This document shows positions 19,890 to 55,813 of a stretch of DNA of 64,000 nt, piece by piece (the first letter of the stretch is position 1; each line of letters begins with the position of its first letter). Below the pieces are notes generated by a model. It saw only the letters and a list, made by a program, of their open reading frames with translations, was not told where the DNA came from and searched no databases. Position numbers and translations under genes: made by a program. The stretch spans positions 1 through 64,000 of IMG/VR virus record IMGVR_UViG_3300037541_000804; one strand, 5' to 3'. Source of the stretch: a virus.

Positions 19890-21395
19890 ATGATATTCGA
19901 CCAAAAGCTAGAACACCATCTAATTTCGGGCCTTCTTCGGAAGCCGAATGAGTATTTGACCATCCAATCGTTTTTCTCGGAGGATGACATTTACAGCGAG
20001 GATTCGTTGTTGCGGCGAACTATTTTGTCGCTCATTCGCCAAGCAGTAGAAAAGGGCGAAGGAGAATCTGTTGACGCAATGATTATTGCTCAACGGTTGG
20101 AGGGTTTGGGAATCAAGTTTGATGAGGAGATTCCAGTCGGCCAATTTGTTGAATCCTTAGCTCTTAGGAACGTTCCAGAAGGTTCCGTGTATAAAGCGGC
20201 TGTAGAGTTGAAGAAGCTAAGTTTGCGCCGAAAACTTTTAGACGCAATGGAAAGAGCGTCAGAAAAACTTAAGAAAGCTGATCGTTCCGCCTCTCTTGTC
20301 GAGCTAGAAGAAATTGTTGATAAGGAAATCAACAGCCAAATGAACGTATTTGATAGTGGTGAAAACGCGCCGTCTAATATTTACGAAAAAATGGAAAGCG
20401 TTATTGAAGAACGCGGCAATAATCCAGTTACAGATTTTGGGATGCTTGGGCCGTTCCCAACAGTGAATAAAATCTATGGTTCTCTTGTTCGAGAAGGTAA
20501 CGTGACGGTAATTTGTGCGCGTGCGAAGGGGGGTAAAAGCACTTTAGCAATGGATTATACAACTTATGTTGCTGACAAATATGATGTTGATGTTCTTCAC
20601 TTAGATAACGGAGAAATGAGCGAGCAAGAGCTAATTTTTCGCCAAGCATCATCGCTTTCGGGAGTTCCTCTTTATCTTCTTGAAACAGGTAAATGGAGAA
20701 ATGCTGGGGAAGAAATTGTCAATAAAGTGCGTTCCGTTTGGAAGCGTATTAAAAAATTGCGTTTTTATTACTACTGCGTTGGAGGAATGCCAGCGGATGA
20801 AATGGTGGCTTTTGCCAAACGCTTCTACTACAACAAAGTTGGAAGAGGAAAAAGAATGATCATCTCTTTCGACTACCTCAAAACAACAGGTCAATTAAAC
20901 GGCAATCTTACAGAATGGCAGGTTGTTGGAGAAATCGTTGATAAATTTAAGAAGCTCATCGCTAAGGAAATTGTATTCGATAATAAACCAATGGTGAGTA
21001 TGTTCACTAGCGTTCAGAGTAATCGCTCTGGCATTGTTACGAACAAGAAAAAGGAGAATATCACAGACGACGAAAGTGTTGTCAGCTTGTCAGACCGTAT
21101 TATTCAATATTGTTCTCACATGTTTCTATTGCGAAAGAAAACAATGGACGAAATTTTAGAAGATGGCGAGCAATTCGGGACTCACAAGTTAATCTGTTTT
21201 GCTGCCCGACACCTGGGAGAAGATGTTTCTGGAGAATTGGAACCAGTAAAAATTGGTGATAAACTAGAGAAAAATTGTATTTTCCTTGAGTTTTCTAACT
21301 TTAGAATCTCTGAAAAGGGAGATTTAAGAAAGTTAGCTGGGTATAAAAATTTTCCACTAGAAGAATCAAAGACGGATGATCCAACAAGTTTTTAA
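19890..21395 (+). CDS. dnaB: DnaB-like replicative helicase
   Basis: ARAKGGKST Walker A, GEM, FDYLK, VQSNR, SDRI. Confidence 0.9.
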   Translation: MIFDQKLEHHLISGLLRKPNEYLTIQSFFSEDDIYSEDSLLRRTILSLIRQAVEKGEGESVDAMIIAQRLEGLGIKFDEEIPVGQFVESLALRNVPEGSVYKAAVELKKLSLRRKLLDAMERASEKLKKADRSASLVELEEIVDKEINSQMNVFDSGENAPSNIYEKMESVIEERGNNPVTDFGMLGPFPTVNKIYGSLVREGNVTVICARAKGGKSTLAMDYTTYVADKYDVDVLHLDNGEMSEQELIFRQASSLSGVPLYLLETGKWRNAGEEIVNKVRSVWKRIKKLRFYYYCVGGMPADEMVAFAKRFYYNKVGRGKRMIISFDYLKTTGQLNGNLTEWQVVGEIVDKFKKLIAKEIVFDNKPMVSMFTSVQSNRSGIVTNKKKENITDDESVVSLSDRIIQYCSHMFLLRKKTMDEILEDGEQFGTHKLICFAARHLGEDVSGELEPVKIGDKLEKNCIFLEFSNFRISEKGDLRKLAGYKNFPLEESKTDDPTSF

Positions 21396-22458
21396 CGAAA
21401 TAAGTCAGCTTTTAGACTCTGGACGAAGCATGCTTAGAATAAGCAAAGAACTCTCCGTTTCTTATTCAACAGTTAGAAGGGTTGCCATACAAAAAGGTTT
21501 GATCGCAAAGGGCAAAAGAAAATACAACGGCATCTATGATACTAATTTTCTGAATGAGATAAATTCTCCAGAGGCGGCAAGATTTTTGGGAATAATGGGT
21601 TCAGACGGAAATATTAATAAAAACATGGCGAGCTTATCGCTGGCTGTAGATGATATAAAGTACCTAGAAAATATAAAAAATCTAATTTGTCCAGACTTAA
21701 AATTGAAGGTCTATAAAAACCATCCCCATAAGGATGTAGCGCGAATAAATATTTGTCATAAAACAGTTAGGGATCAATTAAGAAAAAATGGCATAGTAGA
21801 GAGGAAAAGCTGCATCTATGATTTCCCAGACATTCCGAAGCGTCTTTATTCTTCATTTATTTTGGGTCTATATGAGGGAGATGGCTCTATTTCTCTATCC
21901 ACAACAAGAAATTTAGTAAGGTTTGGTCTTGTAGGGTGCCATTTAATCATTTTAAAGATAAAGGATTTCCTAGAAAAAGAGCTTAAGATAAGTCTCTGCG
22001 TCTCCTATCATAAAAACGTCAAGGAGTTTGGTTCTATATGCAGTATTGGCACAAAAAATAACCTAGATACGCTCAGGGTTTTAGATTTCTTATATTCCTC
22101 AGAAGTAGATTTCTTTATGGAGAGAAAGCTCAAAAAATTTCAAGATGCCCTTTATTTAAAAGATGGATTTGTGGAAAGAAGGGAGATTTTTAAACAAAAA
22201 CATTCCAAGACTATTAAAGAGGCTAACGATTTGAAATCAAAAGGTCGATCTATGTCTGAAATAGCCAAATTAATAAATAATGATTACGCGCATGTTAGAT
22301 ACCTGTTAAGATATAAAAGGTCTTCCATCGAAGAGGATAGTATTGCATATAGCGGAGATTCATTTATTCTCGCGGAAAAACTAAAAGAGAAATATAAAAA
22401 TTTGTTTGAAAAACATCTACCAGAGCGCTCCCATGCAAATGAACCCACAAGTTTCTAA
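21376..22458 (+). CDS. free-standing double-motif LAGLIDADG homing endonuclease with HTH domains
   Basis: FLGIMGSDGN and FILGLYEGDGS; AT-rich. Confidence 0.88.
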   Translation: MIQQVFNEISQLLDSGRSMLRISKELSVSYSTVRRVAIQKGLIAKGKRKYNGIYDTNFLNEINSPEAARFLGIMGSDGNINKNMASLSLAVDDIKYLENIKNLICPDLKLKVYKNHPHKDVARINICHKTVRDQLRKNGIVERKSCIYDFPDIPKRLYSSFILGLYEGDGSISLSTTRNLVRFGLVGCHLIILKIKDFLEKELKISLCVSYHKNVKEFGSICSIGTKNNLDTLRVLDFLYSSEVDFFMERKLKKFQDALYLKDGFVERREIFKQKHSKTIKEANDLKSKGRSMSEIAKLINNDYAHVRYLLRYKRSSIEEDSIAYSGDSFILAEKLKEKYKNLFEKHLPERSHANEPTSF

Positions 22459-52140: not shown

Positions 52141-52903
52141 CAGACTTCTCTTCAACCTTTTCGTCCACCTTCTCGATGCTTGTCATACGAGAGGCGAATT
52201 CTTCGGCGGTAATACCCATATTGTAGGCATAAAGGGCGCTGGTTAGGGCGATTTTTTCTTTTGCGGCGGAATAAACAGGTGTTGGGGCTTCCTCTAGTTC
52301 AAAGTAGAACTTTTCCTGATCTTCAAAGTTTGCACCTTCGAACATTTTTTGCGGCTCATCATTTTCGCGTTGGAAGTAGATGAAATTGACGGCAAACCAA
52401 GTGGTAAGATCGGTTTCAGCTTTAGATTCGGCGGTCAAAGCAAAGAGAGATGTTTTGTACTGGTGGAGTTCAATGATCTGATTCTGCAAGAGGGAGAATT
52501 CGTCCTTTAGTTTTTTGATCTTTTGCTTGACGGCTTTCTTGGGTTGAGTGCCAGCGACAATCAGTTCTTCTTGGACTTCGTAGAGGCGGGTCTGGACTTT
52601 GGCCAATTCTTTAGAGCTAGAATCGGAGATGAGTCCGCCGTTGTCAGAATACTTGTTCAAAAGCATGGCCCGCGTCATGAGTTTCTTCTCTTGAATGTAA
52701 TAGTTTACGCGCATAGCGTAAAACAGTTCGGCCTCGCGGGTGTCAATTCGAGATGGTTTCTTGAATAGGAACTTTACAGGAGATTCGACCGTTTCGGTTG
52801 TTTCGACAATAGCTTCCTTGCCGTCAACGGTTTGGGGCTTTTTGACCTGCTTTTCGGTCTTTTCGGTGACGGTGAATTCGTATAGGGGAGTGATTTTGGC
52901 CAT
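52133..52903 (-). CDS. putative tail assembly chaperone (proximal)
   Basis: position; coiled coil. Confidence 0.5.
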   Translation of the reverse strand: MAKITPLYEFTVTEKTEKQVKKPQTVDGKEAIVETTETVESPVKFLFKKPSRIDTREAELFYAMRVNYYIQEKKLMTRAMLLNKYSDNGGLISDSSSKELAKVQTRLYEVQEELIVAGTQPKKAVKQKIKKLKDEFSLLQNQIIELHQYKTSLFALTAESKAETDLTTWFAVNFIYFQRENDEPQKMFEGANFEDQEKFYFELEEAPTPVYSAAKEKIALTSALYAYNMGITAEEFASRMTSIEKVDEKVEEKSDE

Positions 52904-52922
52904 GGTTTATTAATATTAACGT

Positions 52923-53207
52923 TTAAAGACAGAAAGACACTTCATAATTATCTATTTCTAAATCAGACTCACGAATAACATCGTTGCCCGAATCTAGGAT
53001 TTTCTTACGAAGGCGTTGGTATTTCTCTTTTGAGAATGGATTTCCTACGACGAGAATAGGTATATATTCTTTTGGTAACTTATCGAGAAGATTTCCATAA
53101 AACTCATCATGCGAAGCCTTGACTTCTCCTAGAATTTCTAAGTATTCTTTGAATAACGCGGTAATAAAACGACGCTGCCTTTTTTGAAGAGAGTCCTTTG
53201 CTTGCAT
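52923..53207 (-). CDS. hypothetical late protein
   Basis: first gene after GTGTAA (53239-53234). Confidence 0.65.
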   Translation of the reverse strand: MQAKDSLQKRQRRFITALFKEYLEILGEVKASHDEFYGNLLDKLPKEYIPILVVGNPFSKEKYQRLRKKILDSGNDVIRESDLEIDNYEVSFCL

Positions 53208-53233
53208 GTGGAAATCCTTAATCCTGAAAAGCG

Positions 53234-53254
53234 TTACACGCAAAAGGGGTGTAA
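53234..53254. promoter_or_regulatory. back-to-back putative late promoters TTACAC-N9-GTGTAA
   Basis: at the divergence point of the two structural operons. Confidence 0.65.
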
Positions 53255-53262
53255 TTCCTTAT

Positions 53263-54572
53263 ATGGCACGCAAAGAAAACATCCTCCTTTAGGTGAAGGA
53301 TGAATTTCCGCTAAATATTTAACAATTATCGAAGATTTTGATAAATCCAGTGTAATATATGATGAGTGACGCATTGTGCTTACAAATTCCGCATCTATCC
53401 AACGCCAGAACAGGAAACTGTTTTGCGGCAGACAATCGGCTGCTGCCGATTTGTCTATAACTGGGCGCTGGCTCAGCGGCGCGAGGCGTGGGTAACAAGC
53501 AAGAAAAGCGTTTCTTACAATGCAACGTCTAAAGGTTTGACGGAATTGAAGGAATCGCCCGAGAAAGCGTGGCTCAACAGCGTCTCAAGCGTTTGCTTGC
53601 AACAAAGTTTGCGCAATCTTGATTCGGCGTTTGTAAACTTCTTTAAGAAACGAGCTTGCTATCCAGTTTTTAAAACACGAAAGAATGGTGGAAACGCACG
53701 TTTTCTAGACAACGCCTTCCGAATTGACGGAAACAATCTTTTTCTTGCTAAAATTAAAACGCCTCTCAAAGTTATTTGGTCGCGCAAACTCTCTGGAGAG
53801 CCAAGTCAGTGTGTTGTTTCGCAAAACGCCAGCGGTCAATGGTTTGCCAGCCTTCTATGTGAAGAGGAAATCTCTAAGCTCCCGCACTCCGACAAAAGGA
53901 TCGGTATCGACTTGGGAATCGAAACATTCGCGTCAACGAGTGACGGGCAGAAGTTTGGACAACCAAAGCGTATTCGTCGCTTGCGCCAAAAATTGGTTCG
54001 CTTACAACGATTGCATTCTCGCAAGCAGAAGGGTTCTAAGAACCGCGAAAAGGCTAGGCTTAAAGTTGCCCGCCTTCATCAGCATATCGCCGACACGCGA
54101 AACGATTTTCTCCACAAACTATCCACCAAGCTCATTCGTGAAAACCAAACGATTGCGCTAGAGGATTTGGCCGTTAAAAACATGGTTAAGAACCGCAAAC
54201 TTTCTCGACGTATAAGCGAGCAAGGCTGGCGGAGTTTCCGAACTATGCTTGAATATAAGGCTGAGTGGTATGGGAGAGAACTACTCATCGTAGATCGCTG
54301 GTTCCCAAGTAGCAAGACTTGTTCTTGTTGCGGGAGAAAAGCCGATCTTTCTTTGAAAGATCGCAAATGGACATGCGAATGTGGGGCCACGCATGACCGA
54401 GACATTAACGCCGCCAAGAATATCCTCGCCGCTGGACAAGCGGTGCCATTTGCCTGTGGAGCAGACGCAAGACCATCGAAGGACTACGTTCTTCGGGGCA
54501 GTCCGCAACGAAGCAGGAAACCCAAGGCGTGAGCCAAGGAATTCACGCCGTTCACGGCGGGGAGTATGTCAA
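53263..54572 (+). mobile_element. non-autonomous IS200/IS605-family (IS1341-type) element, tnpB only
   Basis: TTAT then LE with AAAA plus imperfect hairpin (53280-53302); RE GAAT-hairpin-AGTATGTCAA of IS608 type. Confidence 0.85.
53366..54532 (+). CDS. tnpB: RNA-guided endonuclease TnpB
   Basis: YKFRIYPT, GCCRFVYN, GIDLG, ALEDL, SSKTCSCCG, CECG..HDRDINAA; D-E-D triad intact. Confidence 0.97.
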   Translation: MTHCAYKFRIYPTPEQETVLRQTIGCCRFVYNWALAQRREAWVTSKKSVSYNATSKGLTELKESPEKAWLNSVSSVCLQQSLRNLDSAFVNFFKKRACYPVFKTRKNGGNARFLDNAFRIDGNNLFLAKIKTPLKVIWSRKLSGEPSQCVVSQNASGQWFASLLCEEEISKLPHSDKRIGIDLGIETFASTSDGQKFGQPKRIRRLRQKLVRLQRLHSRKQKGSKNREKARLKVARLHQHIADTRNDFLHKLSTKLIRENQTIALEDLAVKNMVKNRKLSRRISEQGWRSFRTMLEYKAEWYGRELLIVDRWFPSSKTCSCCGRKADLSLKDRKWTCECGATHDRDINAAKNILAAGQAVPFACGADARPSKDYVLRGSPQRSRKPKA

Positions 54573-54590
54573 TTAACACAGGCTCAAAAG
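54400..54590 (+). ncRNA. predicted TnpB omega/reRNA with guide 54573-~54590 (5' end approximate)
   Basis: established TnpB biology: scaffold overlaps the tnpB 3' end and RE, guide is the flank after TCAA. Confidence 0.7.
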
Positions 54591-54612
54591 GGATGCGATT
54601 AGTAGTCTTGTG
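54573..54612 (+). pseudogene. relic 5' fragment of an allele of gene 54711
   Basis: LTQAQK(+1 G)DAISSLV versus resident LTQAQKNTISGLI. Confidence 0.8.
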
Positions 54613-54696
54613 AAGAAGAAGAGTAATTTGTAATCATTTCGGCTATTTCTAGCTTTAGATAAGGGTCGGTATTGGGGAGGCGCAACTTTACTTAAA

Positions 54697-54702
54697 GTGT
54701 AA
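54697..54702 (+). promoter_or_regulatory. putative late promoter GTGTAA
   Basis: GTGTAA-N8-ATG, same spacing as 6188 and 53249. Confidence 0.7.
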
Positions 54703-54710
54703 TAAATAAC

Positions 54711-55172
54711 ATGGCTATTAGCTACCTGACACAAGCTCAAAAAAACACAATCAGCGGCCTCATAGACTCGATCCATTTAACGTTTGCAGTTGATGTTACC
54801 GCTTTTCAAATAAGTAAGAAAGCCGCTTTAACCGCCGACCCAAGTTTCAACTCAATTTACCGCCAAAACTCAGCGCAAGTTTCTTCCACGGAGCGTTCTT
54901 TAACGTTCAAAGCTCGTATTCGCTACTTAAAAATGGGAGAGGAGCTAATGACAGAATCAGACGGCTCAAATGCTACGAGCATTCAAGGGAGAGTTATTTT
55001 GCCCGTTGGCAGCGTGAAAATGAAAGTGGATAACACTGCTCACGAATTCTTAGAAACGGCCAAACGTGTGGAGATTAGCGGCAAAAGATTCATTGTTAAT
55101 GGCCATGCTCGGGCTATCGGGATGTTCGACAAGTCCCAATACTGGGAATACTTTTTAACGCCAACAGATTAA
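54711..55172 (+). CDS. putative head-closure/neck protein
   Basis: beta-rich 153 aa, first of a neck-terminator-tube gene order. Confidence 0.55.
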   Translation: MAISYLTQAQKNTISGLIDSIHLTFAVDVTAFQISKKAALTADPSFNSIYRQNSAQVSSTERSLTFKARIRYLKMGEELMTESDGSNATSIQGRVILPVGSVKMKVDNTAHEFLETAKRVEISGKRFIVNGHARAIGMFDKSQYWEYFLTPTD

Positions 55173-55813
55173 TGGCTCGAAAGTTATCCATCAAACGAAT
55201 CAGTGACTTTATCCGCCGCAAAGTAACGGAAAGCAAAATCGTTCAATTTGCCCTACGAAAAACTATAGAAGCTCGAATCCGTCCTCTTTTCAACCAAATT
55301 CGCCAAGAGATGCTAGAAGAATTTGATAACCACCCAATTACAGAAGAAATCGACATGGGGCCAAAATTCGGCTACGAGTCAAGGTTTTTGGGCGGGTATG
55401 GAGACTTGTTTTCTTTCATAGGTTTTGAGAGAGATGATAATCCAACGAAACCAATTCGAGAGATATTTCGCGGTCTAAGACTGTATTCTGTAACCTCAAA
55501 AGGTCTTGATCACGTTTATGAAGTAAGAAACTATCCTACCGCACAAGATATTTTCCGTATTACACCAATGCCGTGGAAAAAGGGCGCATCTTGGGCCGAA
55601 GGTATTGAAAAAGGCATCTCTGGCTTGGGAAGATACTTAAATATTGAATATCAACAAGGCCGCTCTCAGGCTGGTATCCAAGTAAAAACCAAGAAAAACT
55701 TTCGCCCCGCCTTCCAAACAGCTCCTTATATCACTGAAATAATAAAAAAATATCGCGCCAGATTCTTGGAAATTTCCAATCTAAAATTGCTCGGCATCCC
55801 TAAAACTCCATGA
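55172..55813 (+). CDS. putative neck/tail-completion protein
   Basis: basic; PW..G.SWA.GIE.G.SG; synteny. Confidence 0.5.
   Translation: MARKLSIKRISDFIRRKVTESKIVQFALRKTIEARIRPLFNQIRQEMLEEFDNHPITEEIDMGPKFGYESRFLGGYGDLFSFIGFERDDNPTKPIREIFRGLRLYSVTSKGLDHVYEVRNYPTAQDIFRITPMPWKKGASWAEGIEKGISGLGRYLNIEYQQGRSQAGIQVKTKKNFRPAFQTAPYITEIIKKYRARFLEISNLKLLGIPKTP

Follow-up and report, generated by a model that had tools for sequence, protein, structure and literature searches.

Why would a phage keep a gene for an RNA-guided nuclease, with no transposase to move it, beside a duplicated start of one of its own virion genes? The question is raised by a 64,000-nucleotide stretch of viral DNA (the window), the first 64 kb of a 165,329-bp record rated complete (IMG/VR IMGVR_UViG_3300037541_000804; the whole genome is labelled G000). 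At 53269-54572, on the plus strand, the window carries a TnpB-only element of the IS200/IS605 insertion sequence (IS) type, delimited as the DNA that is absent from relatives. An earlier note made from the letters alone had proposed an RNA-guided homing or phage-competition system at this locus. Our analysis leans the same way: we judge it somewhat probable that the element is an active RNA-guided agent of homing or competition directed against the neck gene of related phages. Its expression, transposon-associated motif (TAM), cleavage and gain in inheritance are what we infer from sequence.

The proposed mechanism runs as follows. A TnpB-only IS605-type element occupies a dead duplicate of the 5′ end of a neck-like gene, and a downstream copy keeps that gene working. 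Its guide RNA would be templated by whatever adjoins the right end, here the ancestral neck-gene allele. During co-infection, the TnpB-RNA complex would cut the neck gene of relatives that have both TAM and target. Close relatives would mend the break with this genome as template and so acquire both the element and the immune gene start, which amounts to intronless-type homing in which the rescue allele is supplied with the nuclease. A distant relative would simply be a competitor damaged by the cut.

The element and the duplicated gene start

The right boundary of the element is solid. Its right end comprises GAAT at 54539-42, a hairpin at 54543-62 and the cleavage tetramer TCAA at 54569-72, with AGTATGTCAA ending at 54572 (terminus …GTATGTCAA). 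The four right ends in the genome all end in …GGGGAG(T/G)ATGTCAA, with GAAT just 5′ of the hairpin, TCAA 10 nucleotides (nt) 3′ of it and a different flank after each. A common terminus with differing flanks therefore fixes the boundary at 54572 and the start of the guide at 54573. Two of the three siblings are full copies at 72-73% nucleotide identity, copy B (G000 111185-112476) and copy C (G000 115407-116718), and homology to both runs from 53268/9 to 54572/5. The third, D (G000 130385-130418, minus strand; L004), is a solo right end of GAAT, hairpin and AGTATGTCAA with no tnpB alongside, and may be what a deletion left of an element, or else a minimal guide-RNA fragment.

Beyond the right end the flank reads TTAACACAGGCTCAAAAG…, and MAFFT alignment with eight orthologues identifies 54573-54618 (plus strand) as a fossil of codons 6 to ~19-20 of the neck-like gene. 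Its first 18 bases (54573-90) match codons 6-11 of the resident gene, which begins at 54711, at 14 of 18 positions, and all four differences are synonymous. The translations place a 1-nt insertion, and hence a frameshift, after AAAAGG, with a stop soon after. Past the frameshift the flank encodes DAISSLV where the resident gene has NTISGLI. A generic local DNA alignment of the flank against the gene start was not significant by shuffling, so the homology of the fossil rests on the orthologue alignment. The earlier note had already described an IS608-like right end (GAAT at 54539, hairpin, terminus at 54572), the 14/18 synonymous match preceded by CTAC in the resident gene, and the continuing DAISSLV/NTISGLI homology. 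The first is borne out by the three sibling right ends and the second was recovered as described; the third holds once the 1-nt frameshift is allowed for, and the orthologue alignment carries it to about codon 19.

On the other side of the element, the start of the ancestral neck-like gene is still in place at 53249-53268 (plus strand), with GTGTAAT at 53249-55, a 7-nt spacer and ATGGCA at 53263-68. Upstream sequence is collinear through GTGTAAT-N7-ATGGCA in all IS-free relatives. At the related locus L276, for example, gtgtaattccttacATGGCA is identical at 19 of 20 bases to window 53249-68 (gtgtaattccttatATGGCA). Because of this collinearity we take 53263-68 as the ancestral start codon, and the orthologue alignment marks 53211-53268 as the native upstream region including ATGGCA. 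That start now opens a mere nine-codon frame running into the element. Codons 3-5 (ATCAGTTAT), which carry the true TAM, are missing here relative to orthologues.

These results revise the proposed left junction. TTAT at 53259-62, first taken as the junction, is according to the alignment a variant of the native 5′ untranslated region (UTR). The coding "empty site" ATT CCT TAT|TTA does not survive either, since its Ile-Pro-Tyr falls in the 5′ UTR as judged from L276 and other IS-free relatives. The left-end guide tetramer AAAA lies at 53276-79 and the left-end hairpin at 53280-53302 (both plus strand). When left ends were compared (siblings plus L112, L115 and L119), the gap from TTAT or TTAC to the hairpin was 19-22 nt in the siblings and 17 nt here, and ATGGCA stands at the orthologous start. 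Rather than an intact left end abutting a TAM, with flanks contiguous in an empty site, we found that the left flank runs out at the ancestral ATGGCA, and the left end has probably lost its 5′ part. On the simplest reading of the alignment, a deletion of ~17-20 nt took codons 3-5, the TAM among them, and with these the outermost bases of the left end, which would make the element non-excisable. TTAT|ATGGCA as the true left end is less likely, as it needs a 6-nt chance recurrence of ATGGCA at the orthologous start and a spacing outside the family range.

A second, diverged copy of the upstream signal and gene start (GTGTAAT-N7-ATG) begins near 54697. GTGTAAT and its 7-nt spacer (54697-54710, plus strand) directly precede the resident ATG, and the intact second copy of the gene 5′ end starts 138 nt downstream of the element. 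The UTRs of the two copies differ by ~35%. The spacer between fossil and second signal (54619-54696, plus strand) is weakly like the native upstream region in its 3′ part, and 54591-54710 had no informative match in the genome or in any relative locus compared. This anatomy of fossil 5′ end, element and intact downstream copy is, as an account of the sequence, secure. An inverted repeat, TTACAC-N8/9-GTGTAA, lies just upstream of the neck-like gene start (window 53234-53255) and is kept in all relatives (e.g. L006 and L016), even at 60% identity; the resident copy at 54680-54703 retains it in part only. The conserved repeat may act as an operator or fold as an RNA hairpin.

The resident gene (54711-55172, plus strand) is intact and encodes 153 amino acids (aa). 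Its product has no Pfam or PHROG match. An AlphaFold2 model (predicted local distance difference test score, 72) gave Foldseek matches with weak E values (~1e-2) at a probability of 0.99, and the top ~17 matches were all phage neck, stopper or tail-terminator proteins. The model thus makes a neck-type virion protein likely, probably of the neck/stopper type. Twelve homologue clusters were gathered for this protein, and DNA was collected for 11. The N-terminus, MA.S[YF]L[TS]Q.QK, is the most conserved stretch of the family across the 12 clusters.

Guide, TAM and target alleles

What would a guide read from this right flank recognize? The guide template occupies 54573-54592 (plus strand) and is the ancestral allele TTAACACAGGCTCAAAA, which in related phages is placed directly after a TTAT TAM. 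Its positions 1-17 (54573-89) match TTAT-flanked alleles of relatives perfectly, with AGTTAT preceding the match. Every relative locus compared has the small minus-strand gene followed directly by the 153-aa gene, without tnpB. L005, for example, whose protein is 88% identical, has no element and reads …gtgtaattacttttATGGCAATCAGTTAT|TTAACCCAAGACCAAAAG….

The relatives vary in both TAM and target. TTAT with a 17/17 guide match occurs in L016, L017, L019 and L020, and TTAT with one mismatch in positions 1-12 in L013 (position 6) and L277 (position 9), giving six loci with TTAT and at most one mismatch in that region. The expectation, set out beforehand, that TnpB-free relatives would carry TTAT plus guide is confirmed by these loci. 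A 17/17 match follows CTAT in L018, and TTTT precedes a target with 0-1 mismatch in positions 1-12 in L275 and in the related phage G003. More distant targets have 2-4 mismatches after TTAT (L276, L008 and L005) or 2-3 after TTTT (L014 and L272). In L006 and L007, CTAC is followed by mismatches at positions 1 and 9.

The resident allele, AGCTAC+CTGACACAAGC, has CTAC at 54722-25 in place of the TAM. Its guide-like stretch (54726-43) mismatches the guide at positions 1, 3, 9 and 18, three of them within positions 1-12. The IS-free L006 reads AGCTAC|CTAACACAAGC. The natural ISDra2 guide is ~16 nt long (PMC8612924), and double mismatches within positions 1-12 abolish cleavage by ISDra2 TnpB (PMC10097598). 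By extension from ISDra2, the resident copy is predicted to resist cutting because no TAM precedes it and three of its mismatches fall within the 12 TAM-proximal nt, and several relatives are predicted targets. The genome holds no further site within five mismatches of the 20-nt guide next to a TAM.

The choice of TTAT draws on other members of the lineage. In L112, whose TnpB is 88% identical, TTAT abuts the left end, and the rebuilt empty site is a continuous 195-aa open reading frame (ORF) across TTAT|. The left-end tetramer AAAA pairs with TTAT and the AAAG of copy C pairs with TTAC, as the IS608 pairing rule predicts. From these data we infer that TTAT, matching the insertion motif, is the TAM of the family.

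A guide-RNA scaffold (omega RNA, or right-end element RNA) is predicted at 54393-54572 (plus strand), overlapping the tnpB 3′ end and the right end. The consensus fold computed from nine lineage copies over the last ~180 nt contains 45 pairs, 12 of them with compensatory changes. An Rfam scan of 52500-55500 matched no family.

The TnpB lineage and a mirror layout in G003

The tnpB gene (53366-54532, plus strand) encodes 388 aa from a GTG start. Its product matched the Pfam families HTH_OrfB_IS605, OrfB_IS605 (RuvC) and the Cas12f1-like TNB zinc finger, all above cut-offs, as well as PHROG 506 (E 1e-139) and the ISDra2 TnpB structures 8EXA and 8H1J (E 5e-75). The RuvC residues D182, E266 and D346, assigned by motif, lie in GIDLG, ALEDL and HDRD; these motifs are shared by the three full copies in the genome (A being the present one) and line up with those of ISDra2-type TnpB. 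The intact D-E-D triad reported earlier is thereby confirmed in three copies. The reported absence of tnpA also holds for the entire genome: no match to PF01797, the Y1 (HUH) transposase TnpA, was found in the 165 kb, in a search to which control genomes were positive, and five related viral records had no tnpA either. The pair L112 and L115, described below, points to recent transposition despite there being no tnpA in the viral records searched.

Among lineage copies the ratio of nonsynonymous to synonymous divergence (dN/dS) is 0.08-0.13, with dS at least 1 (saturated); tnpB is, on these sequence comparisons, under long-term purifying selection. TnpB relatives at 72-88% identity were found on viral contigs only, and the closest bacterial or archaeal TnpB in 185,579 species genomes is 55% identical.

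GTGTAAT stands at 53350-53356 (plus strand), 9 nt upstream of the tnpB start codon. It occurs ~9 nt before the tnpB start in all viral relatives at 72-88% identity and is absent at 52% or below. Across the genome, 15 of 30 GTGTAAT sites precede an ORF start, against 12% for control 7-mers, and ~15 genes, every tnpB copy included, are marked by GTGTAAT with a start codon 7-9 nt on. Examples are at window 53249, 53350 and 54697 and, among others, at G000 64734, 65597, 73920, 111257, 115495, 154869, 156300 and 158272. The motif is a candidate phage promoter or gene-start signal. A scan for sigma-70 promoters gave nothing above chance. TGTAAT resembles a -10 hexamer, and its placing would make transcripts nearly leaderless.

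Does the layout recur? G003 (L118, IMGVR_UViG_3300033068_001957) is a related phage with a complete genome of 160 kb and a neck protein at 60% identity. Its lineage element (L118:1285-3800) lies directly after the stop of a 385-aa GT9-like gene, and the corresponding empty site in the present genome is G000 150124-148967 (minus strand). Beyond the right end, the last 29 codons survive in frame as a wild-type fossil, KQNIPFSKANRIIDSDDFWLDIEYYYFYL with its stop, in which 28 of 29 residues are as in the closest IS-free relative. This relative (P0014) was compared at the protein level; viral contigs offer relatives at 44% identity or below only. The resident 3′ end reads KQNLCFAKSNRII… and has 8 mismatches to the 20-nt guide, from position 9. 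Among ~45 homologue clusters, LCFAKS occurs in the G003 carrier alone, the others having IPF[SQ][KR]A. The resident copy thus looks altered specifically where the guide pairs. The target allele in IS-free relatives is predicted to read TTAT+AAGCAAAACATTCCATTC. The left end of the G003 element is also truncated. Altogether, the fossil-plus-resident layout was present in 2 of 9 lineage copies examined.

The sibling copies in the present genome have other surroundings. The right flank of copy B (G000 111185-112662; L002:1501-2984) consists of the last 61 codons of an HNH endonuclease gene, beginning exactly at the right-end junction, and its left flank is without the HNH N-terminus. On the minus strand, near G000 87705-88400, the genome also has a diverged HNH paralogue of 266 aa (…KY|LEDQF…) that is intact. 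For copy C, no clean empty site was found in L101 or L102.

Competing readings, known systems and the surrounding genome

The reading as an active homing or competition element fits every structural feature, and G003 strengthens it; on the sequence evidence we give it a modest preference. The target alleles in relatives, the intact TnpB, the scaffold and the gene-start motif all stand; a second carrier of the cassette was not found.

That absence is one of several points that count against activity. No other carrier at this locus appeared among the 12 relative clusters or in right-end-guide junction scans of viral and metagenome contigs. The scans gave no viral match, and nine metagenome matches were all unrelated coding sequence without a right end. 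An efficient drive would be expected in more than one background, so the lack of a second carrier tells against one. The relatives with perfect matches are 55-63% identical in their flanks, poor for homologous repair, and those at 80-84% flank identity have 1-4 mismatches or no TAM. The resident allele, compared with L006 (CTAC, mismatches 1 and 9, no element), is within natural variation and has no excess divergence; self-immunity here therefore needs no selection. The claim that this allele was recoded is accordingly not upheld, its 5′ end being no more divergent than the relatives are mutually and AGCTAC being natural in L006. Nor was any co-conversion or recoding gradient in the resident gene stronger than the divergence among relatives.

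The lineage itself supplies further points of this kind. Two of its tnpB copies, L117:2501-2887 and L123:2501-2698, are broken by early stops (128 and 65 codons), and by this evidence some copies are decaying. The elements of L112 and L115 (IMGVR_UViG_3300022900_000874 and 3300033068_001321) are 96.6% identical; their sites are unrelated, and each keeps its TTAT left end intact. Ordinary transposition, by a transposase supplied in trans, is therefore another way in which the lineage moves. Finally, insertion into a dead duplicate would explain the history of the neck-gene locus equally well, and would still yield the same guide.

These observations are most at home with the strongest rival, which we nevertheless consider doubtful: that the element is a tolerated insertion scar with no role. 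It would have entered TTAT in a pre-existing dead partial duplicate, such as a mosaic-phage recombination joint. Only insertions in dispensable phage DNA would survive, the guide match would be an automatic by-product, and TnpB might be active without measurable effect, an account of the locus we hold to be possible at best. The lack of a second carrier in the contig and relative-cluster scans, the decaying copies and a resident allele shared with IS-free L006, with no excess divergence, all favor it. So does the spread of the lineage to new TTAT sites, where other copies are a plain insertion (L112) or sit in a selfish HNH gene (copy B). A scar accords poorly with purifying selection on tnpB (dN/dS ~0.1 at saturated dS) and with a phage-type gene-start motif in a lineage that has no close bacterial source. 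It also leaves G003 to be explained: the layout is repeated there, and the unique resident changes are largely confined to the protospacer, which is hard to account for without self-cutting pressure.

A different history, in which insertion was lethal and rescued later, appears improbable. The element would have hit codon 5/6 of the live essential gene, a co-infecting relative would have complemented the loss, and illegitimate recombination would have supplied a new start. The fossil is indeed in place and continuous with the native upstream sequence, and upstream of the resident copy the sequence is diverged and includes a spacer without a traced source. The ~35% UTR difference likewise exceeds expectation for a recent tandem duplication. 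Against this, two rare events are needed within a few generations, and no single sampled lineage stands out as closer to the resident gene over its first 135 nt. The present data do not separate this history from one in which duplication came first. The order put forward earlier, insertion into a live essential gene and then rescue, is thus not established, insertion into a pre-existing dead duplicate being equally possible. Even if correct, an improbable history of this sort would say nothing on present function.

Recruitment of TnpB for another task, such as TldR-like RNA-guided repression or processing of the phage's own DNA, is very improbable: gene-regulating phage TnpB derivatives exist (TldR, as described in bioRxiv 10.1101/2023.11.30.569447) and tnpB carries the phage gene-start motif, but its RuvC residues are intact, unlike those of TldR, and the sole guide-like site in the genome has no TAM and has seed mismatches. 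A nuclease-dead regulator of the TldR type is ruled out by the intact RuvC catalytic motifs.

Tentatively, and with less conviction than for the neck-gene locus, we suggest that this TnpB lineage forms natural "home-and-rescue" RNA-guided gene drives in phages, converting or killing co-infecting relatives. Each element might then sit at a conserved gene end, with the displaced wild-type end as guide template and a cleavage-immune replacement end linked to it, though we advance this arrangement as conjecture for the lineage. Both the neck-like gene here and the GT9-like gene in the related phage G003 show the layout, at independent loci.

Synthetic "home-and-rescue" and "cleave-and-rescue" drives pair a nuclease and guide against an essential gene with a linked, cleavage-resistant rescue version. 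In comparison, the arrangement described here would be natural, phage-borne and TnpB-based, and its rescue allele in the window is a natural variant (that of G003 looks recoded). If the proposal is true, engineered rescue-type gene drives would have a counterpart in nature. An established role of TnpB is to restore its transposon once this has been excised; it has also been shown to drive IS605 through plasmid populations, and protein homing endonucleases are known to bias inheritance between co-infecting phages. A cassette of target fossil, spared linked allele and essential virion target would join the TnpB and phage-homing fields, and it would explain the persistence of a transposase-less tnpB under selection in lytic-type phage genomes. 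The proposal can be tested directly on one pair, guide TTAACACAGGCTCAAAA and TAM TTAT on one side and the resident CTAC allele on the other. Our literature search found no published natural TnpB example for phage homing, co-infection or intronless homing.

Among known systems, ISDra2/IS608 (Karvelis 2021, PMC8612924; Meers 2023, bioRxiv 10.1101/2023.03.14.532601) shares the protein family and the IS608-like ends. There, as proposed here, the right flank is the guide template and the insertion target doubles as the TAM. In contrast to the restorative homing of ISDra2/IS608, TnpA is absent from this genome and the element has a probably truncated left end. With codons 3-5 gone, the flanks are non-contiguous and leave no donor joint that could be restored, and the target is an allele in other genomes instead of the element's own vacated site.

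The free-standing homing endonucleases SegF and SegG of T4, in the account of Belle 2002 cited in PMC13565253, resemble the present locus in having the nuclease gene between conserved genes. As that account has it, the target likewise lies in the adjacent conserved gene of nuclease-free relatives, substitutions protect the self allele (a protection that here is predicted), and repair is expected to copy the nuclease gene with the flanking immune allele. Unlike SegF and SegG as so described, recognition here would be by RNA plus a 4-nt TAM instead of by protein, the system is known from sequence alone, and specificity would be stored as a target fossil beside the nuclease gene.

Another parallel is the TnpB-driven, TnpA-independent spread of IS605 in plasmid populations ("non-restorative homing"; PMC11870625). 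In the process outlined there, as proposed here, the orthologous site that lacks the element is cut, the copy that bears it then serves as repair template, and TnpA is dispensable. The plasmid element, in that outline, is tolerated at its site; the present one is placed where a virion gene that is probably essential begins, and it comes with an immune replacement start. A 2026 review, in the passage concerned, presents "transposon non-restorative homing" between co-infecting phages as a theoretical case, and it cites the plasmid work on IS605 spread that depends on TnpB and not on TnpA (PMC13565253).

The tnpB locus lies between two divergent structural modules. The minus-strand module contains a 2174-aa tape-measure-type gene and three small genes, and the plus-strand module has ORFs of 153, 213, 286 and 374 aa. 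The long gene of relatives has a PhageMin_Tail match. A search of the phage GenBank collection returned no relative of the locus, just short tnpB matches. In two close relatives (L005:4471-4845 and L013:1129-1503), an extra 124-aa ORF that is not in this phage stands between the neck-like gene and the next gene. Elsewhere in the window, a near-duplicate (17/20 between 21376-21395 and 22439-22458) flanks a 360-aa ORF downstream of a DnaB-like helicase gene. Its only match, to LAGLIDADG_3, is sub-threshold (E 0.003), and the ORF may encode a protein homing endonuclease accompanied, as in the TnpB layout, by a duplicated gene terminus.

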